This document shows, piece after piece, positions 1 through 37,472 of a stretch of 59,671 bases of DNA. The notes beneath the pieces were generated by a model. The model was not told where the DNA came from. It ran no database searches and saw only the letters and a list, made by a program, of their open reading frames with translations. Numbering within the stretch: position 1 is the first letter of the stretch; every line of letters begins with the position of its first letter. The stretch covers positions 1-59,671 of the forward strand of contig JAVEBF010000010.1 of the NCBI GenBank assembly GCA_051941275.1, read 5' to 3'. This stretch comes from Dirinaria sp. TL-2023a (taxonomy: Eukaryota). Both the position numbers and the translations under genes were made by a program.

Positions 1-137
1 TCTGAATACATTCGTCGAAGCCAAAAGTCCTCATTGATGAGGGCATCGTCTCTTGCAACTCGCTACTGACAGTAGCGAGTTGCAAGAGACGATGACCTCA
101 TCAATGAGGACTTTTGGCTTCGACGAATGTATTCAGA
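1..137. repeat. Near-perfect palindrome (68-bp arms, 1-nt spacer at 69, one mismatch)
   Basis: 1-68 is the reverse complement of 70-137 (…CGCTACTG A CAGTAGCG…); the single mismatch is g43/a95. Confidence 0.95.
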
Positions 138-1389
138 ACCCCAGCTTTAATCGTTAGAATAATGTCTGATCATGAAATTTAAACGAAGAACAGACCGTGT
201 CTATATAGCGGCTTCAAAAGATATTTCTCCCTGCATCAACCTCTCGAGTATGCAGGAGAAGAAAAACGGCCAGAGTCACTACTACTCACATGCGCCGTTC
301 TCTCTTTTCCATCAAAGCTTGAACGCCTTTTAAAGTCTTTCTATTCAGGTCGATCATGTTTAATTCTAGTAGGTGGCCTAATTGATTCTGTATCATCCGA
401 GGCACGGGTTTAATATCGTACCATGCGGAGTCTCGATCTTCGATAGCTGTCATTCCTAGACTTTCATCTCCAGAAAATTGCCACTTAATCCTCATAAGCC
501 GGAGGGTTGTATACATTTCTAGACATTGTCGAATGATCGGAGTCTTAATGAATTAGCTCGGGACTTACAAATCGAGAGATTGCTCACGTCTTTGTAAAAC
601 TGTGCGAGACGGAAGAAGAAGGCAACAGGATGTCGAGGCGCACACGCTTCACGCAGAGCAAATTTAACGCAGCTCTGTACGTATGACGATATGTCGACTC
701 TGGCATTTGTTAGGCAGTAGGCAGTGGTGTCCGCAGGGTGCCAACCCGATGAGTTCTGCTGAAGAACGCGAGTCTGGTTTTGGTGGATTGCGAGGAATTC
801 GTAGCATTCGACGTTTAGAGTTGAACCGTCGGGGTATTGCCGCAAATCTACTGTAGCCCGAGAACCCGACCCACTCGACCGCACGGTTGTAAACAGGATT
901 TCATATGTTTGATTCATCCCTGCGAAATCATTAGTCTATTATGATAGCAAGTCAAGAGTAATGCACATTTTTCGAAGGGTTTGTGCTGAATAAGTCGTTC
1001 TCGACTGCAGATTTGAATTGAAAGCCCGAATTTGACACATTGTGAACAGCGAGATTCCTCGTCGTCCATTTTGCACTAATACGAAGTCAGTTTTCAATTG
1101 AGATGCTATTAAGTAAACAGAATTACCGGTTTGCTAATAGCCCAACACCTTACACATCGTCCAGAATTTTTGCGAGGATAAGATTGGGGTTCTCCAAGGT
1201 GTTGTGTAGCCAGAGCATCGCCGACAGTGAGCGCTTGTTCGAAGCCTGATGATGATTCATAGTTGGCGTCGTCACGACGAATCGAAATAGGATTGAGTTC
1301 AGCAGTTGATTTAGGCTGTGGTCAGGGCAAGAGATTTTGTTGAAAGTCATGGTCGTTGGCTGAAAATTGACATTGTGCATCAACTGCAC
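70..1389 (-). pseudogene. Degenerate multi-exon gene of unknown function (resembles the C-terminal region of some fungal Zn2Cys6-type regulators)
   Basis: ORF pieces 917-519 and 516-286 continue through TGA (M*VVVTLAVFLLLHTREVDAGR, GF*IHSSKPKVLIDEVIVSCNSLL). The reading is cut at the palindrome centre. The 5' end is uncertain. Confidence 0.4.
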
Positions 1390-1821
1390 TCAGTGACAGG
1401 TCGACACCTGACGACTGTCCGAAATTTGAGGATGCTGCATATCCTGCGCATCAATAACCAGCCAGGTCGGAGTGAGTCTCTGAATTGGAATAAGGCTGTG
1501 AATTGAATAGAGATACCGCCTGATTGGGAACGTTTGGGGCAATCTGACTACATCCCATGTAGTTCCATTCATAGTCGCATCAGTCTGCGGAAGTGAGACT
1601 TAAGTTCTCCGAGTCATCGTCATGTTGAGCCACTAGATGATTCTGCTGATCAGATAGGGGCACTGAATAGCCCCAAGCTTGCTGAAAGATTGACTGATTC
1701 ATTTTTTTGACATAAGATTGGTTGCGGCAACTTCGCTGCGACGAAGTTTGGTCCAGGCGCGTGCACGTGCGCGGAATCTCGCCGGAAACTAAAAAGTTGC
1801 GATATCTGCAAGGCCTTGGCA

Positions 1822-4800
1822 ATGGAAGACGCTACTGCGGAACATCTGTGCATGCTTCTCACCATCGCCTATCAAAGGATGGCGGTAGATGATGCCTGGG
1901 TGACAGTCAAGAAAAGTCAGTTTGATTGTCTACGCCAGCACTGCGAACATTGTTCTAACTTCCGTGAGCAATTGCAAGATTTATCGGACGGACGTGCGGT
2001 TGTCATCCTCTCTCAGAGTCCATCTGAGGAGCCTTTTAAGAAACGGAAAACTGTGTACGAATCAGGATCTCAAGAAGCGTCGCAGTCATCGCACTCGTCA
2101 CAGCAGCCCGAACCACAACGATCATTGCAGCTATCACAGGAGCCTGAATCGCAATTTTCATCACGATCTTCACACATTGCCCAATGTAAAATACCTAAAA
2201 GACCACGTGCAAAAGGACCACAAAAGAGATCACAACAGAAACCACGAAAGATTGAGGCTGTGGAGTGATTTCTACGAAATGCTCTCAAGGTCACTGAGTG
2301 GCGCAAGAGACAGACCGAACTTGACTTGAATACTGTAGAGCAGTACGAGCAAACTATTCGAGCTTTCATCGACCGCACCAATGTCATAGCTGAAAGAGAA
2401 ATATATCAGAGAGAGGAACATTTAGAGCACGAGTTTATCGAGTTGGCGGAAAGATTCGCCTTGCTCACTAAAGCTTTCTTTACGAACGCCAAACGTCAGA
2501 GATCGTTTGCCACGTTTCAAGCTCTTATCTTGCTGTCATATTGCGAGGTTCTCAGGAAAAGGGACGTTTCTTACGAAACTGTTGATCGAATAATTGAGCA
2601 TATTGCTGAGGAGCGTGATCGTCGAAGACTACTTAGCAGCGCCCGGTGGATAAATGACGTTATTGTTGACCTGGTCAGCCATGATTGAACAATTTATCGG
2701 GTCACAGAACTGTTCTTTATTGATGTGTTCTTTGAACTCTCCACTTGCGAAGTTGAACTCATTCCTTAGACGCGCTATCTCTTACCAACCTTACCCATAT
2801 CCACAATAACGAAAATTTAAAATCAATTCTCAAACGTCTCAAAGCAGATGAGTTCGTGAAACATGATTACAGCGATTGTCTAAGATCTGAGTACATCATT
2901 CCCGGTCTTATTGCATCTCTACTTAATGCATGCAAAGTAACGGCTAACAGACTGTCGTATGGATTTCGGTCCGATTGCAAAAGCAATACTGACGAGAAAG
3001 GAATAGAACTGATGAAATTTGCGCCTCTCTTGATTACAATTCGGATTGCGTGCCGAAGTCCGTCGAGAGCACATACAGAGTTCATGCTCCTTCTAGAAGC
3101 ACCCCGGTCACTCCGCGTGAGCTTGATTTCGAGGTCTTGGTGCCAAGTTCCTTTCAAAGCAATGACGGGTCTCTGACTTCAGATGAGATCAACAAAATCT
3201 AATTAAGGTCCAAACTGATACCTGAATCTAGCATCAAATTTCTATCCCACGATCAGGGCATCCAATCCGCGCCGCTTATATACTGAAGGGAGCAGTCAAC
3301 AAAGCATGACTTTTGCATGTGCTGCCACGGATGAACGCGCCATTACTGATCATCTGTCGTCCGCTTTTGAGCGCTCGATCGATGATCCTAGATATTTAGG
3401 AATGCATCGCCAGGAAATTTGCAGTTCATCATCTGCATTGGCCCCCAGCAGTCATTTACGGAACCCTCTTCACGACGCTTCACTGAACACATTGAACATC
3501 CCGTCAAGAATCCGGACCTTCTCGGATGATGAAAAGCGTTGTTCCGCTACTATAACTCACTGCGTCCAATCGTCGTACGCGTCGCCGATATCAAACGTTA
3601 CGCCGGTATCTGCGTCGCATCTGTCGGCGTCTTGGGATGAACGACTTCTGAAGTTGGAACAGACTTCATCAGACGCAACTACACTTCTGAAATTTTTACA
3701 CTTATTACAATCAGATGAGATCCCTGAGATTATATTTTGTCGCATGTGGACCACACGTGAATGTTGGAGTTGCGATGGCGAAATCGAACACGTGAACGTT
3801 TTGCTGAATGGCCCGCTTGTCGACCTTCTAACAAGCCAATCCCAATTTCACGAAAATATTCAACTTCTTGAATCTCTTGAGTTTATCAAATCAGAATCTG
3901 GCCGTTTAGGCAAGCGGAAATTCTCAACCAAGCTAGAATTACAAGACCGCATAATAGACATGACACAAAATCTACAAGAGCTAGAATGGTTACGCCTGAT
4001 CCTTGTCTGCCATTCATTTCCTGAGAGACTTGAGGAGATTGAGTCAGTATCCAACACACTTAACTCGACAGATTTGCTAATTATTTACTGAATAGCTTTG
4101 GGGATACAGAAAGGACACTGCTACCCCAACTCCGACATGCTTTTACACACTGTCAAGGCCTCAGGAACAGGATACTTACACACCCCTCAGCTGGACATAG
4201 CATACTACTAGCTCTTTTGCTGTCCTCGAAACTTCATGACCGAGATTGAAAATATCGTGCTGTCGAGTTGACCGAGGAGATCTTGTCGGATCTTCCGCTT
4301 TTTGATCATGGAGCATTATATCTTCGGATGTTCGCAAGACAACGAAGGAGAGATCTTTCGCGCAGAATTCCAAATTCATTGATAGAAAGTGCTTACGAGG
4401 AGCTGTTGCTCATTGACCCTAGAATTAACGCTCTCTATGGCGAACATCTTCGATCAAATGCACAGGACCGAATTATGGAAGGTTCTGATGACCTGAACGA
4501 TGCACTCGAGGAATTGAGAAAATTTGAGATTTTCCGTGTCTTTCGAACTACGATCGAGGAGCAAGAAAAGAATCACCATCTCTTTATTAAGGAGAAAATC
4601 CATCGTTGAAAAGCCTCCTTCTTCGAAGCAAGCGAGATATTCTACCGATTACTGAAGTCGAGACCAAGTCTATCGAATGAGATGGGTTGCAATCTCACTG
4701 ATCATTATATTGCAACTCTTTGTGAACAACGCCGTCTAGCTTTCGCAGAGAAGAGCGCACGCCAGGCGATTACGAGCTGTAAAGACTTCGATAACCAGGG

Positions 4801-5359
4801 TCTAAAGCGACAAGGCCTGAAGATGTTCAGATCTTTACAACTCTCGTTAGCAGAGACGCTGATCTGCCATATGCTAGTCGAAACAGTCGACGATGGAAGA
4901 GACAATGAAAGGATGAACCAGTGACTGATGGAATCCGAACGCATGTACGACGGGATGAAAGAAGAATGTGAATTTATCAAAAGAGGCGAGGAAGGCACTT
5001 GGGGCTCAGAATTCGACTATTTGAGGATCTGCATCGGGAGAGCTTTAGTCTCACATCTGGCGAACCGCTTGACTGAAGCTCACAATCGCTGACAGGATGC
5101 GCGGAAGTCTGCTGAGATTTGTAAGAACAAAGTTACAAGATTCATCCTCATGCTCATCGACTATTGCGATTGTGATATGAATATGAAGCTCGGTAGATTG
5201 GAAGAAGCGGAGAAACTTCGAAAACGGGCGAACAGCTGCTTCAGTGAAGTGGGGCGTGAATACTGATGGACAGGCTGAGGAACCTTTTTGCTCGATTGGC
5301 TCAAGGTTTCGATTCCGAATAGTGACATAGATGCTGGAAGAGACATCACGCCTAATTGA
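1822..5359 (+). pseudogene. Large degenerate multi-exon gene (possibly two); C-terminal part helical/TPR-like
   Basis: Consecutive plus-strand ORFs (1816-2268, 2326-2688, 3306-4091, 4268-4609, 4682-4924) are linked by in-frame TGA stops and intron-like gaps. The IPEIIFCRMW…W segment and Ala/Leu-rich helical repeats resemble the C-terminal parts of fungal NLR-like proteins; no P-loop seen. Confidence 0.45.
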
Positions 5360-5579
5360 AATTTTTGCTTTCTCGCCCCCTGCTTCTACTCGTTAATTGA
5401 ATGTCGCGTTCATCACAGGTCCGCTTGGAGGGGTTTGTGTTTGAGTTTGCCGTACGTCATCTTTCAAATGCTGCGCGTATTGCCGAGTCTCCTCCCCACC
5501 CACCTCCTTGCTGCAACATCATTGCAACATGTCATTATCAATACCCTTGCGATTCGCGAGGAGCTTTAGTCTTGCTCGG

Positions 5580-6760
5580 ATGCGTCCAACTGTTCCGTCT
5601 ATCGACTTCAAACCCTTTCTTTATGGCTCTGCTGGCGACCGCCAGCGGATTGCCTCTGAAATCGACGAAGCCCTAGGCTCCGTAGGCTTTATTCAGCTTC
5701 TCAACCATGGTATTGAGCAGCACAAGATAGACGAATGTTTCCAATGGGTGAGTCCAATCACTCCCAGCTGTAATACCTCCGCGTCAGTAGCTCTAAATGC
5801 TGATTCGACCGCGAATTGCAGAGCAAACGTCTTTTCGCCCTTTCAGAGTCCGGGAAGCGGTCAATCCGTCCATCTTCTCCATCACATAACCGCGGGTACT
5901 CGAGTATAGAAAACGAGAAGGTCCGCGACCGAATGTGTATGAAAGAGAATTTCGATTGTGGCAATTCAGAGAATCATGAGCGACATAACAGCTGGTCGAC
6001 GAAGGAGCTGCTACCAGGCTTTCGCCACTTTACGAAGGACTTCTTTCAGGTACGAAGTCCTCCTATAAAGTACTACATAAGTACTTGGAGGTCTGACCGC
6101 TCTGTAAAAAAAATTTAGAACTGCGCTCAGCTTATACATCAACTGCTTCAGTGCCTATCCCTAGCGCTAAATCTATCCCCCAAAGACTCGCTCGACCAAT
6201 ACCACGCCAGTTCCCTTTTCGATTTAAGCCTCATTCATTATTCTACCGTATCCCTCTCATCTAGCGGACTCGCCCGTAACCCAGCGCACTCTGACTTCGG
6301 CACCCTGACGCTTCTCTTTCAGGACGAGGTTGGCGGCCTCGAAATAGCAGATACGAGCTCCACGAATAGTGAGATAAATGCTACGGTCGAAAGAAGCGAG
6401 AGTTTCGTACATATTGATCCGAAATCAGGCACGATTCTAGTCAACGTGAGATATTTGCTTATGAGGTGAAGTAATGACCGCTGAAGAAATACCGTTCATA
6501 GAGTTTCAGAGCCTCCTCATTGAAAGGACCAGATCTTACAGGGTTCGAAATGCAGCGATAATGCTGAAAGAACCAATGATAGCGTGAATGTGATACTCGA
6601 AAGATACAGTATTGCTTATTTTAACGCTCCTGACTCTGCGACGGTCGTTGAAGCTCTTCCGTGCTGCTGCGAAGACCAGGCACCGAAAAGATGGAAGTCT
6701 GTTAATGCAGACGATTATCTTCGTAGGAAAAGAGCGACGATGTACGCTCAAGAAGCTTAA
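5580..6760 (+). pseudogene. 2-oxoglutarate/Fe(II)-dependent dioxygenase (IPNS/DIOX family), inactivated
   Basis: N-terminal VPSIDFKPFL…GFIQLLNHGI; HSDFGTLTLLFQDEVGGLE (HxD); MR*SNDR*RNTVHRV with TGA at 6467 and 6482 where Trp is expected; two introns (~5748-5821, ~6049-6118). Confidence 0.9.
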
Positions 6761-6920: not shown

Positions 6921-7207
6921 TACACCATCAGCAGTGACGTGCACCCAAAGTGACCTACAACACGAGGCGTGATTCACACCATCAGCAGTGATGCACACCC
7001 AAAGTGGCCTACACCACGAGGCGTGATCCACATCATCAGCAGTGGCGTACACCCAAAGTGATCTACACCATCAGCAGTGACGTGCACCCAAAGTGGCCTA
7101 CAACACGAGGCGTGGTTCACATCATCAGCAGTGATGCACACCCAAAGTGGTCTACACCACGAGGCGTGGTCCACACCATCAGCAGTGACGTACACCCAAA
7201 GTGGTCT
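6921..7207. repeat. Tandem repeat: 54-bp unit organised as a 143-bp higher-order unit (54+54+35) duplicated twice
   Basis: ACAYCATCAGCAGTG starts at 6922, 6976, 7030, 7065, 7119 and 7173; 6922-7064 aligns ungapped with 7065-7207 with 8 substitutions. Confidence 0.95.
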
Positions 7208-7360
7208 GTCCATACCACGAGTCACAAAAAGATTGTTCCGTCCAGCAATACACCGATTGCGGCAGCAGTGAATTCATTGACCGTCCAAAACATCTTGCGT
7301 AGAAGGAAACCCTGTGGGTGGAATACTTTGAATTTATCTACCCGGAGACTAACGCAAATT

Positions 7361-9228
7361 TCATTGATTTGATTGATAATTCATTTCCAACAAACTCAAT
7401 CCGACATGTAAATAGCCTCGCACAAGCCTTCGCAAATCATCTCGAATTTTCTGAGATTCAGACACTTCGGTGTCCATCAGTAAATTATCATGATCGATCG
7501 AACAAGGAGCCTTACTCATGACAAGCATTTCACCGCCCTTCTTTCTTTCCTTTGGCCCGCTCAGCATTTTTTTCACAGATGTCAGCTTCACATCTCTAGG
7601 CCCAGGAGCTGCGTCCACGAGCGTGTCTTCATCCCGATCTTCTTTTCCCTTTTTCATCGCATCTGACTTATTCGATTTATATTCTCTTAATACTTCCCCT
7701 CGCAATACATCATCCAGATTCATCGTCCCCTTATGAGTAGAGATCCGCCGATGTTGGCCCTCGTTTAAGAAGCCATGCTCATTACGTTCGGACGCGAAGT
7801 AGATGGAAATACGTAAGATCTAGACGGGTTAATGATGCCAATCTCGGGATGAAATTTGTATTTCACGTACGTAGCTGTCATCCAGTGCATCGTCCTTCAA
7901 GACTTGATTCAAAATCTCTTGCGTCGATGCCTCATCCTCTGTCATCGTTAGCGACTAATCCATCAATGACGACCTGCGCACTTATCGATGTTTTCTAATT
8001 GCCAGACCAAGCGAATTCGCCGTGTGCGGGTCGTGAAGTCGTTGTAGTCTCGAATCAGTTGTCGAAGATATGGCAACTGGGCGGTTATTCCAAATCCCGA
8101 AGCGACCATAAGAACCCGTTCATATTCCCCCAGAGGAGCGCTGGCCTCATGCGGACCAGTGAACAATGCTACACGGAAATCGTTCCAATCAGACCCGCTT
8201 TCGTATCTGGCCAGCCGCTGAAGTTTGGACGTGAACCCTTTCTGAGAATCGATCAGTAATTCCAGTTTCGTCTGCTCGTCTTCCTCGCAAGACGCTACTA
8301 TGAACGGATGACTTTGCAGAAAGAACCAAAAACTGACCGATGGTATCCATAGATTGATATACTGTCCTGGGTTGACCTTCAATTTGCCATGAACGGTGAG
8401 GCTTATCATGAAGCCGCCGTCAGTCTTGATGATCACTGCTCGTGGGAGTCGTCTCCGAAATACGCCGTTCCGATAGAAGCTGGCAAAGAGCTGAATCACG
8501 AATGTGAAGCCGAAGATCCCAGCCGAAACATAGAGACAGATCTGATTGACGAGTGATTTAGAACTCAGATGACGCCAGAGCACGTACTCAATCAGGAACG
8601 CCAACGCTTGGTGGCTACGAAGGAAGAATTCGTACGAAAGCTTGCGAATGAAGCGTAATGAGAGTACCATTAAGAAGCTGAGAGTAGATATACCCTGTCA
8701 GTCTATAAGTGAAGTGTCGATGGAAGTGATCATGTGACTTACGATGAGCAAATAAAGGTTCCCGAGCACGCGTAAAGAGTACGTAGGGTCGTGATGAACG
8801 GCAGCGAATGTGTGTAGCGCGACGAGTGCGAAAGACATTATCCCTACGGAGCGATGAATCCGTCGATAGTTGAAAAGTGACAGACCCAACAAATCGACTA
8901 AGAAGCTCAGATGAAGATCAAAGAAAAGCGGCGCCATGTTGATTATCGAAAGAGTTCCTGCCCTGTCTCCCGCTTCGTTGAAGGAAGTCATGCGAAAGAT
9001 GACGCAGAAGACGTTGAGTGAGATATACAAGAGCTGAAGCAGAACGTCGGCGGGACTTCACGGCCTCAAAAGACGATGACGTCGCACGATCAATGGATAG
9101 ATGAGATACCTGAATATGATAATGTTAAGCGATCGGAGAACTTGCTGAATGAATGGAAAATCTTTCATGAACATCAGAAGAAGGAAGAAGCCGCCTGCGA
9201 CGATAGCATAGATTTGAGCAATCTTCAT
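7361..9228 (-). pseudogene. Ferric reductase / NADPH-oxidase-like flavocytochrome (Starship-type FRE), probably inactivated
   Basis: TM His motifs (RRIHRSVG, LHTFAA, RSHQALA), FAD-binding QSHPF, GPHE (GPHG expected), NAD-binding VLMVASGFGITAQLPY; C-terminal exon ends …RDDLRRLVRGYL…NYQ. A donor near 7985 reads GATAAGT instead of GGTAAGT. Confidence 0.85.
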
Positions 9229-9336
9229 GATGAACCGATAATATGATGAGAACGTGCAAGGAAAGTTGGAGCGAAGATCGTGAGGAAGAGATGAAGCAAC
9301 GAGGGTTGACTATATATTGAAGGGCACTAGGAGATA

Positions 9337-9450
9337 TCAGATGTGGCAACAGAATCTGAGTCCAAATTTGACTGGGAGGAGGGAGCGGGGTTGAGAAATG
9401 GCTCCACAGCATCCAGAATTGACTGCGGAGCATCCAGAACTGACTGCGGA
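9337..9450. promoter_or_regulatory. Cluster of CArG-like dyads upstream of the ferric reductase
   Basis: CCAAATTTGA 9362, CCAGAATTGA 9413, CCAGAACTGA 9434 (CC-N6-GG once the local GG->GA change is reversed); TATA-like TATATAT at ~9311. Confidence 0.5.
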
Positions 9451-9635
9451 ATGAAGTGCTATGACATACACAGTTGCTGCTGTGACTTTCGGAAAGACAG
9501 ACTCCGAACTATATTTCGGACAATGGCTCATTTGCGCTATGGAATTGGCGTGACCTAACAAGTCGAAGATAGGATACAAAGTATGGAGTCGCATAGGAAG
9601 TCAATGAACCACACTGGAAGTAGGAACATTGCGGC

Positions 9636-10853
9636 TTACCACTCCATCGTATAAAATCTGCGCGATGAGACTTGGGTGATTGACACCAACAAGCCGAGGT
9701 CATCCTTCTTCCAATCATGGAGAAAGGCATGCTTCAAAGATTAGGGTTATCGTCATCTGAAGAGGGCAAATTCACTGACCTGCAAAAGCTCTTCTGCGGA
9801 AGCAGACATAATCTTCGATGAGAACTCTTCAGCCGTAGAAGACCAACGACGTAGATCGTTTGCTGCGGCCCCCTCACGCTTTCCCAACAATTGTCTCATA
9901 ATATCTTCGACAGCCTGAACGTCCGAATGCCCCCTTTTGATTTCTTTCGACATGATCGTACAGCGCTCCTGCATACTGATTTTGACCTCACCGTCATCGT
10001 TCAAGAGGACAGATGAGCAGGTGATATCGTCATGAACCAGATCCTTGGACTCGAGGAACTTGATACCGCTCAGCATCTGGGCTCGTCAATGCCGGCGTTT
10101 GGGTGAAATAGACTGAAATTCTATCTGACCGACTATCGATGTCACGTGAGTCTCTTTCGGGTGAACGGGGGCCGCGACGACTTGAATCAGGGAAATTGAC
10201 ATATGTTCAAGAACAACGTAGAGTTCGGCTTCGAATTCGTAAGCATTCGTGCATCTGACGAAATACTCCCCTTGGACCCGAAGGAGCATAGAGAGACTGA
10301 TATTCCTGCTTGAGTCTGAGAGCTTTTTTACCGCGACCACTTCCGAAGCTGAATGACGTTTTGCCACTCCAGAATTCGAACGTTTCTTCTTCGCTACGGT
10401 GACAAGTTCACTGACCCTGAGGTTATAGCCTTCGTCGTACGACCGCCAAGAAGATTCTTTCTTCGTCTTGAAAGATGCCTTTTCGTTCAACTTCTCAGTA
10501 GCGCCGTTTTTTCTAGACGTCCTCTCGGCAGAAGCAGATTGACTGAAAGAATGAAGACCGCTCGGCGGAGATGACTCCGCCTTTCCAGTGTCCTGTTCAA
10601 CGGCAGGTCTTTTAGAAGTTAAACGTTTTCGGTCCGCAGAACTGACGATACGTTCATCACCTTCTTTATCGGGGTATGTTCTATTCCTTTTTGATTTGAC
10701 AGCAATATCGTTATGAGTATTCGACGAGTCTCGGGTGTTTTTAGATGATGAGGGATTGCCACTGACTGATGACACATCATTCGAAACGAGTGAAGGGGCT
10801 TGAGAATGTTTCAAATTAACTTGTGTAAATCGCTTGGTGAAGTGAGAATCCAT
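9636..10853 (-). pseudogene. Degenerate protein kinase-like gene, head-to-head with DUF3723
   Basis: VVAVKKL (subdomain II), LYVVLEHMSISL (V), LSGIKFLESKDLVHDDITCSSVLLNDDGEVKI (VI-VII; no canonical HRD/DFG); Ser-rich N-terminus; the donor near 10124 reads AG|ATAG. Confidence 0.75.
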
Positions 10854-11233
10854 TCTAGATATCGCGCGACGAAGCGTCGTCAGTGACCAACGAAGAATGA
10901 ACAGGAAGGTCGTAAAGCACAGGGACGGAAAGTACGTAGAAAAAGGTGTAGAGAGAATCATTTGAGATACGGCGGAAGATCGATGAACATACTTTTCTAT
11001 TTACAGAGTAGCACAGAGCCATTTGATGATCAAGATGACATCCACTTCTGACGTCTTGGGTCGTCAGTTACGGCGATGTCCTCATCTCTCAAGATGCATT
11101 AGTCACCCCAGTTTCTGACTGACTCGATCCTTCTCAAGTCTGATCGTAAAGTCTCATTGATAATTCCTCAATGTCGAATCTTCTCTTCTGTGAACGGAGG
11201 TGATGATGCTGATCATCAAACGATGCTCTCGTG

Positions 11234-26197: not shown

Positions 26198-26976
26198 GTT
26201 AGATAAGATCGCTGAGACAGTGAATGAGTGAAAGAGAGACAGCTTGTTGTACGGCAGAAGAAGGCAGAAGAAGATAAAAGAGGAGGGAGCAGCGGTTTTG
26301 AGGGGCACTGAGCTCGCATATTCAAATGCTCCGCCTGATTAGAGCCGTGATTAGGCATTGTAGACGCTGCAATCGTCTCCCTGTAGGGATGCTATCAATC
26401 AGGCCGAAAAACAGCATCCACTTTCGTGAATGAAAGGGAATCGGGGCGTAGTCAAGCATCTCTAACTTCATTTGAACTAGAGCAGATCTTTGCTTGCTTG
26501 CGAGCTTTCAGACCACGACCACTCGAGCATCTACAGCTTGAAGTCCAGTACCCACAATGCTCTTTTTCGATGCTTGTAGGCGCTCCGAAGTTGCCTCGAG
26601 CGTCTCGGACGAACCAAGGTTGTAGTCGATGAGAATATCTAGAGAACTCGACGTTGAAGGTTGACTGTCATGTGTATTCATTGCTCCTGGTGATGACATT
26701 GTGCTTTGATGAGTCATGGCTCTGCCGAGAAGTTTGTTGCTTTAAAGATCGCCTCGCCCATGTAGCCCTACAAGGGAAACAGGGCGTAGTCAAGAATTAG
26801 TAACTCCATTGAGAGTAGGGCTATTCTTGCTCGCGGAGCTTCCACTCTCAACGAGCGCCAACTGCTCTACTCCAAGTGCCACAGTGTTACCGTGAGCGCC
26901 AGCTTTCTCGTTCCGATTTCGGCTCCTCATAACATCAATCAATTCCGTATCTTAGCGACTTTTGTGAACTGTAGCA

Positions 26977-27276
26977 TGATCGGTAGCTTTATATTTTGTC
27001 TGTGAATTACGTTGATTACAGAGAATTTACTGACAGTCTTTCTCATCGACCAGGATACTCAAAGATCAATGACGTCATTAGATGAAGTTGAAAAGGCTTT
27101 CCCTTCACGTCGCTCGTTATGCTTGCATCGACTTGTCAAGCGCGCAAACTTTATTTGCAGTCGCTGCAACATCGAAGCTCGTCGCTTACGCTAAGGACAA
27201 ATGGGACGAATCTTTGTGCAATGACTGCTACGATAATCTTCTGTCCACCTCAGAGAAGCAAGACGGAGCACAGTAA
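26977..27276 (+). pseudogene. Small double zinc-ribbon-like protein, frameshifted
   Basis: LHRLVKRANFICSRCNIE (one frame) then KLVAYAKDKWDESLCNDCYDNLLS (next frame): two CxxC pairs. Confidence 0.55.
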
Positions 27277-27413
27277 TGATTGTGCTGGATTTTGGTTGGG
27301 AAAATCACGTATTGAAATAATCATATTGAGGTACGTTAGGGTTTGGACCTGCTTGCATCGTTATTCATGTTGATTGTATGTCTTTGCTTCTTACGATATA
27401 ACGGCACCCATTG

Positions 27414-30400
27414 CTAGCACAGTCGAGGCTTCTTGACCGAAATGTATCGGCCTTCGTTATGAGGGGTCTGTCTTTTCAGCTCACGATCCGCGGCAGCCAC
27501 ACACGACTTACATGAGCGGTTCAGACTGCTATGATAGGCCGTGTCAAACGGAGCGTCAAGATGTTGCTGATCGATAAACCACTGCATTGTCTGCGGAAAA
27601 GCGCTGATCTTTCGTCGAGACCTTTTTGCACTCGTCGCATATATACTGGTCAGCTGACTCAGATCCCGAACGATGAATTCCACTGATTTCCGATATCGTC
27701 GGCACGACGGACAGAGGTCGCGTTTACCGAAGTAATACCCCAAGGCCCTGCTATGCGTTACGAAGGATAGGCGAGAAGAATGAATTCGTTCGAGCAATTT
27801 CATCATGACTTCACCTGAAAGACGACATCGTATCGTCCTCAGACAGCGTATTCGATTTTCTGGCAATGGGCTCGGGATGCAGCTTAGTTCAAAGTAGAAA
27901 GATGCTATAAGCAAAGCGTATATCGTCTCCTTGCACTCCTGGATCATCTGTGGATTCAGATGGACAAGTTGACGCAACTCGTCCATCCGGCTGATGTTGT
28001 CCATCGCCGGCTCGTTCCTCGGTAAAATAACGTTAAGCCGCTTATAGTCTTCACGATTTTCGCGGTTCAAGCCATTCACAACGTCTCTGAAATTGCTTTC
28101 GCCGTCGAAAGATGACATATATGCCCGCCACAGTCGAGGAATGAAGCCGTCAAATAGCACGTGACGAAAAGAAGTAGCTCGCGGCGAATTGGCCTTTCTG
28201 CTGATACCTGTCCCCACGGATACGACAAGATCAGGTCTAGAGAGCGAAGAATCGATGCGCAGGCTTTTCCAAAGTGCAAGCTTGATAGGATTGTTGTGTC
28301 CACTCATACCCCCGTCCTGGATTGAGCCGATGACACTGATATATGCGGGTGGATAGAGGCTACAGAGATCAGTCACAGACGGCAACAGAAGCATCTAGAG
28401 ACGCTTACACCGGGGCTGCAGAAGTCATTCGGCCCCTAGATAATTTAAGCTAACGTAATCATACAGCAAGAGAGACTTACGCTTGTCAAAGATACGGTTC
28501 GTCTTTCATATCCGTCGGACGGATGATTTTATAGCCTCACTTATGGTCAGCACGAAATTGGAAAGAAACATTCTCCGTCCATACCGCACTTCTCGTCCCA
28601 CTTGCCTGAGCCATTATAATTCGTCAGCAAGACCGGGACGCCTTTATCAATGATAGCTGCCGTGACGCCAACTTTCGTGGAGATGGGGCTCTGGACGTGG
28701 TCGAACAACCGGCCTTGAGAGCCTAGATTTTCCTGCAAATGGGACTCCAACGTTTCCGCATTGTGGCATCCGTCACGGTACCACGACTTAATCAGACGCC
28801 GGAGACGACCGAGAACACTCGTTCCATCGAAAGAGGGAGGAAATAGCTGCTTGGCCAGGATATCGAACATCTTCACACACTGCGAAACTGATATCTGGCG
28901 CAGAAAGAGGATTAACACGATAAGGCCCCCTATTCCCGTGTCAGTCAGGCCAAAGAGTCAATGTTGAATCGTCAAATTCACCAACGCTGGTGTCATATGC
29001 AACGTCGAATAAGTTCTGAATTCTTCAGATGTTTTCTAGAATATTTTGCAGAACATTCATAAATTCTACCGCTATCACCCCGAGAGTTCCCCCACCGTCT
29101 ATGCTCAACAGCCGTAATTCGACAGTGAGCGGCCTTAATTCAACCAGAAGCTTTCTCATTCGACAAAGCGTACAAGCGTCAACTCGATATTGAGAGTCAA
29201 AGATCGAGATTTCATCATCGATATTTCGAACGCAAATCTCACATATGGCGTGTTCACAAGACAGAGTAATCTCAGACATTCGTCGAATACAACAAAAGCA
29301 GGTTTCATTGCTCTTCATCTGCACTCAGTCAATATCGAGAGAAGCCGTCTTCTCGCAGTGCATCTGAAGGGTGGGCTTCCCGGATGCGATCATGAAGGCA
29401 TGGAGTTGAACCAACTGGCTGCGAATGAAAGTGTTCTGATGCTGAACGAAATCGCGGTCATCATATGTCTCAGTAAGGGACTGAAGACAAAGATGCCGAT
29501 ATTGGACGTCATAAAGCATCCCCGAATCGAAGTCTACGAATTTTGATCAGATGTTGAACATTCGTGTTCGCCAGGGTCAGAATTGTCTTACCATGCATCT
29601 TTGAGGGATATGCGTCTAACATGACACTTGAAGCTACGAAAGTCATCAGCGCGTCGCGAGAAACCTGATGGTTCTCTCCGAACCGCATGAATCTGAACAA
29701 GTGATGAACGAAATCTGATTCGACGTCGTTGCCCTTCCGACTCGCCAATATGAAATCGAATGATCGACTCATTGAGACTGCTGTATGAGCCACAGCCATG
29801 CGGAAAAACCGAGTGATGTGCTCGGCAGAGTACAGACAGCCGAGAATCTGTCGAGTCTGACGCATCTCGTTCATCTCCCTTCAAAGAAGCTCCTTGAGCC
29901 GACGAAAACGTGCCAGGGGAGATAGCTGCTCAGCAGTCAGATGAAGCACTTTGATCGAAGAAAAAAATTCTTTCAGAGATCTATTGTGAAGGCCCTGCTG
30001 AAGATCGTCTATTCTGAGAAGATCATAGATGGGACTGAAGCTAGCTGCGTCTCCACGTCGGACGATGACAACTCTCGATCGAATCTTGTTGAAATGAACG
30101 GAAGCGCTATCGACAGCGGCCCATGATTTAAGCAGCTGAACGGCATGATCGAAGTCAACAAAGTCATCGGCAAACACGCAGACGACATCGATGAAGAGAC
30201 AGAAGAGACGAGCGTGCAAAACGTTGTAGAGATGTTGCACAGTCGTATCCTCGGCCCACTGAATGGGAAATGACTCGGTCTCATCGACGCGAGGATCCTC
30301 GACCGCCAAGGGTATGACTTGACTTGAACTACTCTCCGCAAAAAAGATAGGATGATCGAAGTAAATGCTTGCGTTGTCAATTCTCAAGATTGCCACGCCG

Positions 30401-30612
30401 TCGCAAAAGTGTTTCTTGAAGTTGTTGTCGAGGAAAAGTTCCCGAAGAGCAAGATCCTTGACTTGTCGTCCCACGAACAATAGAGAAGAAGGTCGTTGAT
30501 TCGAGGAATTTCTCAGTTCCCTTACCAACTGACTCATGCGCCCAGGGTCGAGAAGCCTGAGATCGTTTATGCCAACTACCTGCAACCACGTCAGGTGTTC
30601 GCAAGAAGTCAT
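27414..30612 (-). pseudogene. Patatin-like phospholipase with long N-terminal region and RING-like Cys cluster (Starship-type PLP), inactivated
   Basis: LRLLSIDGGG; nucleophile motif reads YDTSVG|GL (GTSxG with Gly->Asp at 28992-28994); QDGGMSGHNNP; VVSVGTG; CFCCIRR…CEHAICEIC; several TGA stops. Confidence 0.88.
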
Positions 30613-30954
30613 ACGCACGATCGACAAAGCGTTACTGAAAGCAAGCCGGATTGGATGAATGGAATGACGAAATGTCGATCGAAAGAAGAAGGGGACGCCA
30701 TACGGGATTTAATAGTACGGACAGTCATCCACAATTCGATGCTTTTGATGGATCTACTTTTGGCGACGGAAGGACGGCTTCTGTCGCCACCACTTCAAAC
30801 ATAAGGAACACTCTCCACAGCAGAATATTTGCAGTCAAGGAGCTGGCGATGACAAGATTTCATACAGATGAAACTATCTAAGTACGCAGAAAAATAACTC
30901 AGTGTGAAGTTGACTCAGAATCAAGTACAAGAACGATATCCGCCGCTTCATTCC

Positions 30955-31736
30955 TCAACTACGCACTCGTTTTCGCTGCTCACCGAGTTCAGACAGTAGC
31001 ATCATTTGCTCATTCTCTTCTTCACTGCTCTCAGAAATTGATGTCATGAACGTGCTTTCGAGCGCAATCTCGAAGTTGCGTGATAGCTCTTTCAGCAAAA
31101 GTCGCTTGTGCTGAAGATCATCTCTGATGTTATAGAGCTTCTGCTCTAGGCTTTTTGTCTTCGCCTCTAGATTTTCGAGTGCCGCTTTCATGTCATTCCC
31201 TTCGAGCCAAATTGTGCCAATGCTTGCGTTGTCGTTGAGATCCGCTCTTCTCGGAATCTCAAGAGTATTCAGAAATCCAATGAAGTCCCGAACATGAGCA
31301 CGCTCTTGCTCCAGCGACCGCTCGGTTGCTTTGTGACAACTGAACTCGTGGTTCAGGGATTGTGTTACAAGAGCGCGCTCCCTTTTCTCCAACTCCAGTG
31401 CCTCCTGCTGAGTTGCAAATGCTTTTTGATAGTTGCTCACGATCTCTTTCAATTTTGCGACTTCTTCGCTTTGGGCATTGAAGAATCTCATGCGGACCTC
31501 GTTGAACTGATTGGCTTGACCGGCTTCGAAAAGCCGCTGGTGCAGTATGACATTCTGATTTTCGAGCGCACTCTTCTTCCAGCGGAGTTTTTCGTGAGAG
31601 ACTAGCTCAACACCGCACGTGTGACAGATGACTTGGCCAGGCTGTTGCTAATGTCAATATTCGTCCGTTCAAGCCGTGGGACTTCGTATACCACTCGGGA
31701 AAATTGAAACAGTGCACTTTCACCTTGCGTTGCCAT
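30955..31736 (-). CDS. Coiled-coil protein upstream of PLP (possibly disrupted)
   Basis: 178-aa heptad-rich ORF 30955-31491 plus an upstream segment starting MATQGESALF. Confidence 0.5.
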
Positions 31737-34255
31737 GATGATCAAAGCGAATGTTATAACGGGGAGATGAGGATGTGATGACGAGAATGTGAGAATGTGA
31801 TGACTGCTATGAATGATTCGAGTGACTGAATCGTTTGAGACAAGCGATCGAAGAAGCTGTACTTTATACATTGTTCGAACTCTGAAACAATGTTACTAGA
31901 CCAGTCCATCGCTGGGCCACCCCCCACCGATACCCAGTGCTACTTTCGCTGACCCTTGTACAATCCTTCAGGTACCCCGGGATTACATTTCCATTCAGTC
32001 GATTTATGAATGAATGAGCGCAAAGAGCAAGAATGCACTGAAGTCATCCACACGCTCGGACCGCCGTCAAGTACACTCAAGTCACGCTTGCGACGGGACT
32101 TTTCACAGCAAAAGAATGAGGCTATACGAATGGATTTCAATTCATGTTCTCATCCTGCACTGTCTTGATATCGCTCTTTGCTTTCACCATAAAGAATCAT
32201 GACTAGAATCATAGAGACTGCTCGAGCAGAATGATTGGCTACCCTAAAATCAATGAACTTTAGCGCTCGGCAATTCTGCGTGACTTATGCAAGTCATCAC
32301 CCCTGCCAGAAGGATTCGCGGCACAATTGCTGATGTGCATAGGGCTTATGCGTGCTCAGTCAGCTTGTGGGGTAAATCCTTCGAGCCGAGCTCCAGCGAT
32401 ATGACTGATGCACATCCAATGCTCCATTAATGGCACCCTTTTGCGTCAGAATTGGATACACTGTTGTATCGGGATTTAAAAAGAAACAGCGATGCGTGAA
32501 TGTCGGTGCATCATACTTGCACGCATTTCTCGCCATGGCTAGATTCTTCGATGAACAGTACCTCGAAAATGGATGAAACGATTTCATTAACAGCAATTAC
32601 GCGACTGGCTGTGAAGACCCGACATTGTTCTCGTCTTTGGATTATTTCGTTAGTCATGGCATGTTGGAACCCAATCCTCGACTGACGACCTTCTTTCAGG
32701 ATCTTTCAGCCGGAAATTCGCATGCAGATCGAATCTCTACCCCGGCGTGCATCGACCATGCCAACCTGCAGGGTTCGCTCGGAGGTCAAGATTCCAGCGT
32801 TAGAACAGGGGAGACGAAATTGGAATACAAAGAGATCAAGGCCTTGTATGAAAAGAATAATGTGATCTCAACATTGCTAATGTCTGTTTAGGATCGAGGT
32901 AAATTCAAGGTATTTCGATAAAGCAAATCAACGAAAAGTATTAACATTGACGAAAGACAGATAAACCAACTGGGTCAACACGTCGAAGCGTTGCATCTCT
33001 ATTTCGAAGCAATGAGATCGACACTGAAAGATTTGACAGAGCAAGTCAATCGACAGTGAGTGATAAAAACACCCATAACTTCTTTCCTAAAGAGAGAGAA
33101 CGGTCCGAGCCAGAGAGTCAATTCAGGTAAAGCGAACAAGGGCGAGATCGCCAGCGATGAGCGAAGAGAAAGTTAGAGAACTTTGAAATTTACGGCCTTC
33201 AGGCACTTGAGACAGACTTCACGAGTTCTTGTAATGCTATTAGTCGTACTTCGCTGGAGTTTTCTTTAACGGAAACTGTAACAGCTCTTAAGCGTTTGTG
33301 CCCCGATCTAATAAAGACGAGGCGAAGAGCGGATCCTTGCTCAATAGAAATCCTCATTTTATTCACCTTGCTTAAAAGCTCACGAACGCATCGAACATAT
33401 TGTTGGCGATGTTCGATAGTCAGTCAATGAGACAAAACCTGTCACCGAAGGAGATTAACACGTCAAGAAAATTTGACAAGAGAGACGATGGCAAGTTCCG
33501 ACATAGATGCGGCAACATCTCATGTAACCATAAAGGCAGTTCTGTCAAGAATTGATAACATCTATTCCTACGTCACGAGCCGCCCTCTGTAGCGAGCCAA
33601 ACTGTAGACACTTTGCACCTAGAGTAATCTCAACTTTCGATGTACTTTTTCATTTCTTTAATCCTTTACTAATCCTGTGCTTTAGCTACCCGTGACCCTC
33701 AGAAATGACTCCCAACTAAAAATTACGATAGCATTATCTAGTTTGCAGGGTCTCCTTTTAGTGGTTTTCGGGACACCTCCATTACAGCTTTATCACTAGC
33801 TCTCATCACTCTTAATAGTTATGATACAAGCCTAAGAGCCTTACTAGAACGCTGATAAGTTATTATTAGCCCTATGGCTGCCATGCAATGTCGTCACGTC
33901 GATCGATACTTCCAATCAAAGCGATACGATCCTGGTATATTACTAAACTCCCGCACGCCCCACATGATAAGTAATAGATAACGTACAAGATGACGTAACT
34001 TAACGTTACATAAGTTAATCAATTCCTTGTCTAAAGACTGTGACTGCTCCTTTTGCCTGTAGCTTGCTTAATTCAAACGACATGAGTCATCGCATGTCTC
34101 ACTTTCCTACTCCCCCGCTTATATGCTTAGGACTCCAATTATTCTCTTCCTTATCTACGATGAACGTGTACAGCTAGCGTTCGGTTTCGCAGCTGGCAGG
34201 CGCGCAATATAGCCCTGCACCTTTTCATATTGCTTCTTTCCTCATCAAGCGTAGC

Positions 34256-36004
34256 ATGTATCCATATCCGACAATCGATGTGCTTCACTGAAATGCACAA
34301 AGCGTGTCTGTTAAATGCCCATACTGCGAGGAGATACATCGACACGACGTTGCGCTCCCGAGTAGACGCAGTTCTCATTGTCACCCAGATGGTCAATACG
34401 AGTTCATGCTTCCTATCGATGAAAACAGCGAACTTGTCGACTATGAAATTGACAAGAGAAAGGCTTGTTTCGTGAATGTTAGCTTTCAAACAGATCAAGA
34501 AGATGAGGATTCACATTTTTCAAGAGAAGATGAGGGCGACTTGACCGATTTTTTTGACTCCGCAATGAACATCTCTATCGCAAATCCAAAGTCAGAGCGA
34601 CTTTTGAATTTTGACAATGACTCAAGAGAGATTGAAACTATCACTCTTCCAGACGATGACACTTTTGAGCAAAAGAGAATTCATTTCGCTATTTCAGAAT
34701 GCATTTTTGGCAACTTGCATGCAATAACGCAGTATCTCAGCACTTCAACCGAAACGAAAGTCTTTTTGCACGGGAGGAACAAGACCGAAAACACTAATCT
34801 GATAACGGTTGCAGCGGAGTGAAATCATGAGATGATATCGCTCCTCTTGCAACACGATACAGATGTAAACGCTACCAACAACGACGGACGAAGCGCGCTC
34901 ATGAAGGCGGCACTCTGAGGCCGAATTGAGAGCGTGAGGGCGCTTCTCAAGATCAATGCCGACAAATGTCTTCGAGATCGTGAGGGTCGCCGTGCGATAG
35001 ATCTAGCGCAGTCTGCTCGAAGAAATGAAAAAGAGAGATACCAGCGCTCTTCCATCGCGGCTGCAGAAAAGGTTCCAGAGCGTGATAGAGACAGACGGCA
35101 TATCGTCCTCTTACTTGACGACTTGGCTACTAAGAAGCAGCATATATACACTGATCCGCTTTCAGAGAGCGAACGAAACAAGTATGACTTCAGAAAATCT
35201 CAATCTGAAAAGTCAATAACGCTTCATGAACCTATTCGAAGCTACCGCGTGCCACATATCGCCAAAACAGCCGCCGTTCTCGACAGAGAAGTCCAGTTCG
35301 ATCCTATAGGGGCAATCAGTGATTGGGGCATCGATGCTCTGCCTCCGAACAAGAAGACTGAGTCATACTGGATCAAGCAAGTCTTCTATATCGCTTTCAT
35401 AATCGATCATGCGTTCCAAGATGCATCAGATCCGAGTTGTGATCAAGATATACCTGAGCAGTATTTTGCTTCTCATGCGGAGAAGAAGCTGATCGCCTAC
35501 TTCATGAATAGGCACGTATTTCTGTCTCAAGACAAAGAGTCTGATCAGAATTTGAAAGATTCAATCCTTGAAGTAGAAGACTCTCTTATAGAGGGAAAGC
35601 GCTCGTCCTCAGCCTGGGCAAAGGTGTGTGATCTAGGAGACAGAAGAGCAGAATTGAACCTCCAGCTCTTCGAAGCAGATGATCGACTATTAGATGAATA
35701 TTATGATGAGCAAGAAGTCAAAAGATTAAAACAAGAGATTCATGCGATCGATGAAGAACTATTTCGCCTTCGGCCAAACGCTGACGTGATTAGAATGAGA
35801 GCTCAAGAGAAGAAGAAGCGCATGTTGTTGAAGAGAGAGAAAACTCAAGAAGACTTGATAAAGCTGAGTAGCAATGAGCCTCACATCGCATTGAGACGAG
35901 CAGTCATTTTAAGCAGCAACAAGATCTGCGGAGACTGTACTATGTTTAATCAAAGGGTGAATCACTTTTTCAAGCTCAGTATCGAAATGAATTGATGTAC
36001 CTAG
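34256..36004 (+). pseudogene. Zn-ribbon + ankyrin-repeat + zinc-dependent deaminase-fold (HAE…CxxC) protein, inactivated
   Basis: CPYCEEIHRH; ankyrin LLLQHDTDVNATNNDGRSALMKAAL*GRIESVRALL; ASHAEKKLIAYF (35474) and ILSSNKICGDC (35927-35938); TGA at 34289, 34820, 34916 and 35993. Confidence 0.7.
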
Positions 36005-36254
36005 TCTAGTTTCGTATAATGCATCCCTTAGCTTACGAAACACTTGAATATGAAGCGATCTCAACGCTTTGTCTAGCAGACTCATGACAAGTGCAGTAAA
36101 TGGACCAAAGACCAGCCTTCATCTCCATTTACATGTCTATACAACCGTTGGCGCCAGAAGTCATATTTCGCACCCTATATTATCACATTCGCGCCACTGG
36201 GGCTCTTCATGATTCTGGTGCAATTTCATACTTCATGTCCTGTCTTTCGCACAT

Positions 36255-36596
36255 CTACGCCACTTGCGCACTTGCTTCTGACTCATTTTCCGTAGCTTGC
36301 ATTGCGCTTATCCGCGTCAGTTTGACTTTTCGCTCTAGCCCATTTGTCCCTGATGTAGGACTTTTCCGCTTCCGATCATCATTTTTCTTGCCTGCAGTGA
36401 TTTCTTCTGCTTCTGGCGTAGCATTCGCGACCTTCTTGATTTCTTTCGCAGCCTTCTTGACTTCTTTCGCGGCTTCTTTCGCAGCACGTTCCGCTCGTGT
36501 CTTCTCGAGGTCCTCGTAGCTTACCACTCTTGCGATCCCTAGTATTTCTGATCTGATCGGTCGACGAACTTTGACTTCGTTATTTATCTCAGTCAA
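36255..36596 (-). mobile_element. C-terminal fragment of a pogo/Fot1-like DDE transposase
   Basis: INNEVKVRRPIRSEILGIARVVSYEDLEKTRAERAAKEA matches, from memory, the C-terminal tail of fungal pogo-type transposases; the catalytic domain is absent. Confidence 0.65.
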
Positions 36597-36799
36597 GCAC
36601 TCCTGGTACTTCTTCTAGTGTACGAGGATCTCACTTCATGCGAAGAGAAGATAAGAGGATTGCGGGCACAGATATCTCTTTTTACTAGTCTTAAGAATTG
36701 GTCGAGACGATTACAAGTCTCGAAAGTTGAGAGAATGAATGATGCATCGATATGAGTCATAATTTTGTCTGCTAATCCACCAAGTATTCAAGAACTAAA

Positions 36800-37472
36800 C
36801 GATATCTCGAGCGTACCACACTCAATACTGCTGTAGATTGAATAACTTGTTAACAAAATTTCACAGACCAATTGCGCTTCCTTCAACGGTCCTGCGACAA
36901 GAATCACCCCTTCACTCAAAGGCCAGGATTGATCCAAAATCTCACGCAGCCAATGTTTCCCCAATTGTTGCAAGAGGTAGAGGTGCCCGCGAAATAACTG
37001 TCAATGAAATCGCCGCACCGGTCTCCGTTGCTGGAATCCTTGGTGGAAATGTCAAGCTGCTCTTGGCCCTGGAGGCCCCGGTAGAGTAACTCAAAACTGT
37101 ACGCCGTGCCATCCTCCGTGGGAAGCCACGTTTCCCCGGGAGATTGCGTGAGATCGTCCACCGTTGCTATAAACCCGTTGCAGTCCCTTTCGCTATAAAA
37201 GGAGACTCCGATCTTTGAAGACTTGTCCTGCCATACTTAGCCATGTTTTCAAAGGGCTGGCGGGTTCATACCTGTCGTTTCTCCAATTGCTCGTCAATCT
37301 CGTCTTTGACTTGGGTTTCCGAACCTTTAGCTTCATTAGCAAAAGGATCTTTGCTCTTCGGACTGCTTTTGCCCTCCGCATCGTGTGGGGGATTTGCCAT
37401 ACTGGGAGCTGCCAGAGCTGTGAACATTTGAGCAACGAAGATAGTACCGCAGAGCAGTGCTTTTGAGGAGTG
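36800..37472 (-). pseudogene. Secreted protein (signal peptide, Kex2-like KR site), degenerate; coordinates approximate
   Basis: MHSSKALLCGTIFVAQMFTALAAP…LEKRQ, then an intron and a downstream exon with frameshift and TGA stops. Confidence 0.45.

Follow-up and report, generated by a model that had tools for sequence, protein, structure and literature searches.

The DNA analysed here is a contig of 59,671 nucleotides from Dirinaria sp. TL-2023a (JAVEBF010000010.1; the whole stretch is called the window below), which is fungal and belongs to a metagenome-assembled genome. Positions 1 to 36738 form a hypermutated tract in which CpC has been changed to TpC, and GpG to GpA, as traced by composition, polarised context tables and codon-level inference; on the left it is truncated by the beginning of the contig. 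To the right lies a flank that lacks the signature and holds intact genes (36778-56999), and the last part of the contig (57001-59671, at 1-kb resolution and running to the contig end) is a block of CpA>TpA changes of the kind produced by canonical repeat-induced point mutation (RIP), recognised by its dinucleotide composition.

Broken genes occur along the tract on both strands. A pseudogene of unassigned family at 4064-5569 (plus strand) carries five Trp>TGA changes and, in comparison with nine homologues, 23 of its 28 GC>AT steps are CpC-type, which extends the signature at the codon level to 4.1-5.6 kb; over 1-4 kb it is known from composition alone. Homologues of this gene (P0093, P0094), with 76-78% identity and up to 84% for shorter ones, were found in genomes named Teloschistes flavicans and Circinaria calcarea, and their presence in distant lichen fungi may reflect horizontal spread of the element. 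Next come a 2-oxoglutarate-Fe(II) oxygenase pseudogene with three in-frame TGA (6119-6760, plus; Pfam PF03171), two 143-bp tandem copies (6922-7207, plus), a ferric reductase (FRE) pseudogene (7948-9309, minus; PF01794, PF08022 and PF08030), a protein-kinase-like pseudogene (9747-11000, minus; PF00069) and a pseudogene of the Starship-type accessory family DUF3723, in which the PF12520 match is split between two frames with in-frame TGA (11425-13765, plus). An FKBP-like pseudogene at 19620-20231 (minus), whose name was taken from an earlier note on this DNA, gave no Pfam match at E<=0.001 and shows four CpC-type differences to public runs between 19736 and 19849. A DUF7514 pseudogene (25139-26338, minus; PF24355) is followed by an open frame of 326 aa and unassigned family (27414-28394, minus) and by a patatin-like phospholipase (PLP) pseudogene with an upstream domain, which has 19 TGA in its long frame (28930-30708, minus).

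The rightmost pseudogene of the tract, at 34256-36004 (plus), encodes ankyrin repeats and an SsdA_C, DYW-like deaminase domain (PF12796 and PF24120, the latter at E=3e-10). It is 90% identical to the intact protein P0001 and carries four Trp>TGA changes, and 42 of its 46 GC>AT steps are CpC-type, extending the signature at the codon level to 34.3-36.0 kb. The family has the H-x-E and C-x-x-C motifs expected of SsdA_C, with zinc-motif residues H433/E435 and C584/C587 invariant in nine sequences, while the window copy has four stops. The source annotation nevertheless predicts a 426-aa protein from this broken gene. The gene sits in a 3-kb segment (33555-36596) that is missing from five related loci (L009, L004, L010, L014 and L020), and intact or near-intact versions exist elsewhere, as in public run X4 and protein P0001. 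A PDB sequence search with P0001 returned predominantly ankyrin-repeat matches and nothing on the deaminase part.

The earlier note had read conserved Trp codons as turned into TGA at eight places, and TGA is present at all of them, the codon at 19793 being TCA on the plus strand and thus TGA on the minus strand. The changes it had described in conserved glycine motifs are also there: DTSVG in place of GxSxG in the patatin-like gene (28980-28994, minus), adjoining a GGGxxG-type stretch, GPHE in FRE (8146-8157, minus) and YAYD in the FKBP-like gene (19664-19675, minus). Through Trp>TGA stops and Gly>Asp/Glu changes, the genes checked in the tract are disabled, the ankyrin/SsdA-like deaminase gene among them. 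We also considered a code in which TGA is read as Trp, under which 130 frames are found instead of 33. Such a code is not supported, since conserved Gly residues are replaced as well and the genes to the right of 37 kb have open frames under the standard code; frames open up in every phase of the tract under such a reading because TGA/TCA is enriched, which is no evidence of recoding. The intact genes of the flank are RSN1 (41186-43738), SIR2 (44984-46489) and a DUF3723 gene (49928-52747) of 939 aa with 63- and 126-bp Glu/Lys/Gln-rich repeats.

By Pfam and motif search, the hypermutated segment thus carries the Starship-type accessory genes DUF3723, FRE and PLP. In a recent preprint on Starships of lichen fungi (e.g. 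Tangerine), DUF3723, patatin-like and NLR genes are given as typical accessory genes and RIP degradation is reported (bioRxiv 10.1101/2025.11.25.690456). The tract resembles these elements in its DUF3723 and patatin-like phospholipase genes, with FRE in addition, and differs from them in that relatives are collinear across its right edge. Starships have a tyrosine-recombinase captain (DUF3435) at one end; none turned up in the 25 long frames that were scanned, in a window whose tract is truncated on the left and has undefined element ends. At the contig start itself lies a 68-nt fold-back (1-137; arms 1-68 and 70-137, one G/T mismatch), which is probably an assembly end artefact and could be the centre of a large inverted duplication.

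To polarise the changes, related loci were collected from metagenome contigs in a protein-guided search that used the open frame at 27414-28394 (minus) as query. This gave 36 loci (numbered L below), with several genomic arrangements of the segment and several homologous loci per assembly. Many of them could be aligned with the window over 5-18 kb, with 80-90% identity. The loci were projected on the window, one representative was kept per near-identical group, and the consensus was taken as the ancestral state; the strict consensus covered 6,712 positions in the tract and 2,166 in the flank, and a looser consensus was also used. The window's own DUF3723 paralogue at 49928-52747 was tried as an ancestor proxy and discarded, as its identity of just 37% makes it unusable for contexts.

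Against the strict consensus, the tract shows 373 window-specific changes, comprising 151 G>A, 103 C>T, 62 A:T>G:C transitions and 57 transversions, so that 254 of them are G>A or C>T; the other 119 are at flank level. Sorted by 3′ neighbour, C>T was found at 159 of 591 CpC sites (26.9%), compared with 17/514 at CpA, 29/697 at CpG and 49/729 at CpT, the non-CpC contexts ranging from 3.3 to 6.7% with CpT second-highest at 6.7%. In the flank CpC is not raised (CpC 9/174, CpA 5/180, CpG 8/153, CpT 11/213). The looser consensus gave the same picture, with 225/835 CpC versus 143/2877 non-CpC sites changed in the tract (odds ratio 7.05, p = 1e-64) and 12/252 versus 37/801 in the flank (odds ratio 1.03, p = 0.87). 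The 5′ neighbour had no effect, rates being 9.3-10.6% for all four bases (within CpC sites, p = 0.15), whereas the base at +2 had a strong one (p = 5.5e-11, looser consensus): CCA 81/180 (45%), CCT 72/232 (31%), CCG 41/170 (24%) and CCC 17/158 (11%). Positions -3 to -1, +3 and +4 did not influence CpC hits in the tract of the window. A runs test showed the changes on the two strands to be interleaved (209 runs observed, 216.7 expected; z = -0.76). In pairwise directional counts, each segment examined between 6.9 and 26.5 kb had 24-34% of its CpC sites changed. The genes at 4064-5569 and 34256-36004, for which the loci offered no DNA relatives, were compared with intact homologues at the codon level. 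Lineage-specific changes other than C>T show no excess in the tract (110 of 4,246 positions, against 36 of 867 in the flank).

These tables, together with composition, bear out the earlier note's claim of CpC>TpC (GG>GA) hypermutation over some 37 kb on both strands, by which the 5′ C of CC is hit and the 3′ neighbour decides: the base at +1 must be C, and the base at -1 is without effect. They also agree with its remark that the pattern is unlike Neurospora RIP, with its CpA target, and APOBEC3G, which hits the 3′ C of CC, and they support the RIP-like or deaminase process with a different 3′-neighbour preference that it had proposed. The comparison with homologues could have shown transitions without CpC enrichment; the enrichment was strong instead. 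An internal control is provided by the two 143-bp copies at 6922-7207, for which the note had counted eight differences, all GG/GA or CC/TC. All eight were found again as CpC-type, and the differing sites are embedded in identical flanks. That identical repeat copies carry different hits indicates a stochastic outcome and favours real mutation over a read-out artefact.

Sliding dinucleotide ratios, the check suggested in the note, located the same tract. Per 3 kb, (CC+GG)/(TC+GA) is 0.35-0.56 in 1-36 kb and 0.66-0.86 in 36-57 kb, with a step at 36-38 kb that at 1-kb resolution goes from 0.44 (36001-37000) to 0.92 (37001-38000). Relative to 37501-56500, positions 1-36500 contain 0.70x the CC/GG, 0.60x the CCA/TGG and 1.49x the TCA/TGA, and from the CC+GG deficit about 1,200 transitions are estimated for the tract. 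The classical RIP indices TpA/ApT and (CpA+TpG)/(ApC+GpT) are normal there, and the GC content is 0.44-0.48 versus 0.47-0.51, with no AT-rich, isochore-like product. The interval 51001-52000, within the repeat-rich part of the intact and unmutated 939-aa DUF3723 frame, also has a low index of 0.40, so the CC index alone can mislead.

The window was also compared with public runs (numbered X), whose matches to the flank come mainly from lichen and rock metagenomes. Cover gaps at 34.1-36.1 kb (X6 and partly X2) were left out of the interpretation. Among the 40 of 4,691 differing places that were listed, 18 have T/A in the window and C/G in the run, 14 of the 18 being CpC-type; the 18 in the opposite direction are spread over 6 CpA, 6 CpC, 5 CpT and 1 CpG. 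Among these listed differences, contigs of run X2 carry T opposite the window's C of CC, mostly in CCA, at 25680, 29078, 29144, 29571 and 31906, which may point to another copy in which this process struck different sites.

The right-hand boundary of the tract is sharp. The earlier note had placed the end at 37000, and the tract does end near there; the limit can now be set between 36,738 and 36,777, since the last mutated CpC-type site is at 36738 and sites from 36777 onward are unmutated with few exceptions, leaving 36739-36777 as the boundary interval. Structural breakpoints of relatives lie close by, at 36597-36654. In the five loci that lack the deaminase segment, position 33554 is joined to 36597 via about 470 unrelated bases, and L026 has a similar junction at 33557/36599; in L006 and L008 the match to the window starts at 36646, in another arrangement, and a contig of run X2 diverges at 36654.

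The cleanest view of the process came from two other assemblies. Over 20,942 aligned bases, 114 differences separate L006 from L008, of which 111 are C:G>T:A transitions and 108 are CpC>TpC with the T/A allele in L006. With just six other differences, this is indicative of a recent burst and not of slow decay. One hundred of the changes fall in two patches within 847-5823 of L006, where CpC was hit at 100/611 sites and CpA (0/655), CpG (0/574) and CpT (0/643) not at all, that is, at none of 1,872 other C's, a specificity for CpC of more than 100-fold; the remaining eight lie at 14597-18350. As in the window, the base at +2 mattered (CCA 27%, CCG 19%, CCT 11%, CCC 8%; p = 3.5e-5) and the base at -1 did not (p = 0.39, within CpC sites). 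The 5-kb region has sharp limits, at 847 and 5823, and the adjoining 15 kb was spared. Clustering by strand is weak (z = -2.1), with 31 plus and 17 minus hits in the left patch and 20 plus and 28 minus in the right, and a model of double-strand-break resection was dismissed because single-strand deamination would produce a far stronger bias. The patch of L006 is homologous to the unmutated flank of the window, so the process is not restricted to a particular sequence.

Other relatives carry variants of the signature. L009, the window's closest relative in the flank (aligned parts: window 7072-12732, 25137-26522, 27029-33554 and 36597-40256), has a lineage-specific excess of its own in the same region, with 74 of 443 CpC sites changed. 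Sites mutated in both number 29, against 27.3 expected by chance, and the two hypermutations are independent. In L009 the rates are highest for CCG (43%), followed by CTG (16%), CAG (14%) and CGG (11%), with the others at 1-7% except CCT at 13%, a CNG-type pattern that is weaker in its flank homologue (28/250 with G at +2). The order at +2 therefore varies by lineage, being A>T>G>C in the window, A>G>T>C in L006, and mainly CCG and CNG in L009. The more distant L016 and its twin L031 contain a block of at least 8.8 kb with 25-31% GC (L016 11501-20311; L031 1-2500 and 11501-20948), where per 500 bp CC and GG number 0-2 and CG is absent, while CA, TG, CT and AG persist. From its composition, the block appears to have undergone C>T to saturation at CpC and CpG, while CpA mostly escaped. 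Within it, a 2.7-kb inverted repeat (L016 14825-20309) has arms that are 84.7% identical and differ almost solely by transitions at CpA and CpT. Translated in all six frames, with stops read as X, the L016 block matched no Pfam family.

Canonical RIP is present as well. In 57001-59671, CA falls to 8-10 and TG to 8-14 per kb, where most of the contig has some 50-100 per kb, and TA reaches 120-170 per kb with CC and GG undepleted; one contig thus bears two distinct signatures, the CpC tract and CpA RIP. Among the relatives, 86 sites distinguish L011 from L013, and at 71 of them L011 shows CpA>TpA; heavy CpA RIP has hit 80-95% of the CpA sites in L019, L026, L027 and L033. Recent, light CpA-only events are clustered in stretches of 5-10 kb in L003 (15-21 kb), L023 (6-11 and 15-21 kb) and L010 and L014 (2-12 kb). 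Together with the L011/L013 pair, these events can be set beside the CpC events as a control. The CpC signature is separate from the canonical CpA RIP of this genome and its relatives, and CpC and CpA events share their spatial behaviour in the same element family.

The tract resembles RIP of Neurospora and other Pezizomycotina in its C:G>T:A transitions on both strands, in the decisive 3′ neighbour, in kilobase-scale tracts with sharp ends (36738/36777 in the window; 847 and 5823 in L006), and in the disabling of mobile or accessory DNA alongside canonical CpA events in the same element family. As in RIP, the excess consists of C:G>T:A transitions alone, the other changes in the tract being at the level of the flank. 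The CpA preference of RIP is absent: CpC is targeted and CpA spared (17/514 in the window; 0/655 in L006), there is a +2 effect, and the product is not AT-rich and leaves the usual RIP indices normal. RIP-type mutation is directed at CpG in Aspergillus and Penicillium and at TpCpG in Microbotryum and other Pucciniomycotina; these variants are a precedent for lineage-specific shifts of context, and none of them is known to target CpC. No report of a CpC-dominant process was found in the literature searched, in which most subscription journals were not covered and CpC figures just as a minor or theoretical class; it is so listed in two RIP papers (PMC2621366, PMC5737583).

Among other sources of C>T, APOBEC3G deaminates the 3′ C under guidance of the 5′ neighbour, acts on single strands and turns TGG into TAG. 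Like it, the process seen here makes C>T changes within CC dinucleotides and converts Trp codons to stops; unlike it, it hits the 5′ C, shows no effect of the base at -1, interleaves the strands and gives TGG>TGA. Neither the 5′-neighbour specificity nor the strand-coordinated clusters of AID/APOBEC kataegis were seen. An ultraviolet (UV) signature, with C>T at the 3′ base of dipyrimidines, was rejected as there is no -1 effect and none of the 1,872 non-CpC C's in L006 changed, many of which follow T or C. 

Spectrum, context, strand symmetry, boundary, recurrence in independent lineages and burst character were all observed directly. Transitions with 3′ specificity on interleaved strands, in sharp tracts and bursts that recur in RIP-hit accessory DNA, point to a RIP-like process on double-stranded DNA, and the same facts are at odds with spontaneous decay, UV and APOBEC-type single-strand deaminases. 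We therefore favour, with a probability of about 0.55, region-targeted RIP-like hypermutation that changes C to T at CpC on both strands (CCA > CCT > CCG >> CCC) over at least 36.7 kb and disables the genes examined. Such a process would be distinct from the canonical CpA RIP, would come in bursts over sharply bounded regions of kilobase scale, and would constitute an enzymatic genome defence acting on double-stranded DNA. Its trigger may be duplication or heterochromatin, as in RIP, and its actor could be a cytosine-modifying enzyme with a CpC-reading pocket, either a RID/DIM-2-like methyltransferase homologue or a deaminase. Going one step further, the lichen-forming Lecanoromycetes may possess a second RIP-like defence pathway, with its own enzyme that reads 3′ bases with more than 100-fold specificity for CpC and with a trinucleotide preference that diverged between lineages, from CCH (window, L006) to CCG/CNG (L009) and to all CpC and CpG up to saturation (L016); we regard the odds on this proposal as even. 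Its enzyme would be a new CC-reading cytosine modifier on double-stranded DNA.

Several observations weigh against RIP-like hypermutation as the explanation. Duplication, the defining trigger of RIP, is a putative one for the CpC tract. No internal repeat matching the mutated L006 patch was found in L008, and the sole indirect pointers to duplication are the multiple loci per assembly and the contigs of run X1, about 50 of which align to 20 kb of the window. In Neurospora, CpC is the least-favoured RIP context and RID and DIM-2 both prefer CpA (bioRxiv 10.1101/344036), so that a CpC route needs a retuned enzyme or another one. The more than 100-fold specificity in L006 is stricter than described for RIP. 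CpA RIP on the same contig implies either two specificities in one genome or a tract mutated at another time or in another host, and the differing +2 preferences mean that several processes may be lumped together.

Of the other explanations, we consider it unlikely, though less so than the rest, that the actor is a polynucleotide cytosine deaminase instead of a RIP-type methyltransferase homologue, either derived from bacterial toxins (DYW/SsdA-like, such as the ankyrin-deaminase family of the tract) or fungal and AID/APOBEC-like, which might serve as a defence against mobile elements or as their weapon. The ankyrin-SsdA_C gene lies at 34-36 kb, where CC depletion is strongest within the tract (index 0.36 and 0.26), its relatives retain the H-A-E and C-x-x-C motifs, and the family is widespread in Pezizomycotina. 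Bacterial toxin deaminases offer precedents for 3′ specificity and double-strand action, some of them reading the 3′ neighbour (e.g. CpG-specific) and some being active on double strands (bioRxiv 10.1101/2023.06.29.547047). The gene in the tract is itself hypermutated, however, with four stops, and L009, likewise mutated, lacks it at this place. SsdA is reported to be a single-strand enzyme without strong context dependence, and the strand-coordinated clusters expected of single-strand deaminases were seen neither in the window nor in L006. The family also occurs in Trichoderma, Fusarium and Bipolaris. For these three genera only CpA-type RIP is known. The tract deaminase is the obvious candidate, but the evidence that makes it the suspect enzyme is weak. 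Because GG>GA mirrors CC>TC, the sequence alone fits a primary lesion on C or on the paired G, and an SN1-type alkylating agent that modified O6 of the 3′ G in GG would produce G>A; had the DNA been integrated or recombined later, confinement to a segment would follow. Temozolomide is the precedent, producing C>T at NpCpC and NpCpT via O6-methylguanine on double-stranded templates only (PMC12556801), and the tract shares with this signature, SBS11, the C>T at NpCpC on double-stranded DNA, with CpT as second-highest context in the window (6.7%). SBS11 has a strong NpCpT part and acts genome-wide, however, while here CpT is weak or absent, at 0/643 against 100/611 for CpC in L006, and the effect is regional. 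A diffusible agent would be expected neither to stop within 40 bp nor to spare 15 kb beside a 5-kb patch, and several lineages show the pattern in one and the same element family, which together make a guanine lesion very improbable.

Slow decay of 5-methylcytosine at CpC in a heterochromatic, already dead region would account for regional confinement, both strands and stochastic hits, but the 108 CpC changes against six others in 20.9 kb between L006 and L008 amount to a burst, and lineage-specific changes other than C>T are no commoner in the tract than in the flank. No eukaryotic methyltransferase is known to prefer CpC, and we see even less room for decay of this kind than for alkylation. 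Hardest to maintain is the view that there was no mutation process and that the tract is foreign DNA of other composition, a product of TGA=Trp coding, or an artefact of base calling or assembly where bases were modified. The metagenomic origin of the contig, the fold-back at its start and the lack of any independent read set that reproduces the tract at >=99% could be cited for it. Yet the changes are window-specific and directional and hit conserved Gly, Pro and Trp codons, identical repeat copies differ, relatives are collinear across the boundary, the flank genes use the standard code, and the same type of change separates two other assemblies (L006/L008), so this view is already largely refuted and scarcely credible.

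Our best reading is accordingly region-targeted RIP-like hypermutation with a CpC specificity that would be new among RIP-like processes. In practice, RIP scanners built on TpA/ApT and CpA indices would overlook this whole class of inactivated DNA, as those indices are normal in the tract, and gene models in such tracts are pseudogenes with near-normal GC. The near-identical pair L006/L008 supplies a clean spectrum for scoring candidate enzymes, and an enzyme that reads CC on double-stranded DNA, if such is the case, would be of interest for base editing and methylome mapping. RIP, the eukaryotic model of homology-directed mutation, avoids CpC. A strict CpC process that recurs, in bursts, alongside normal RIP implies either that RIP enzymes are far more retunable than thought or that another cytosine modifier is at work.

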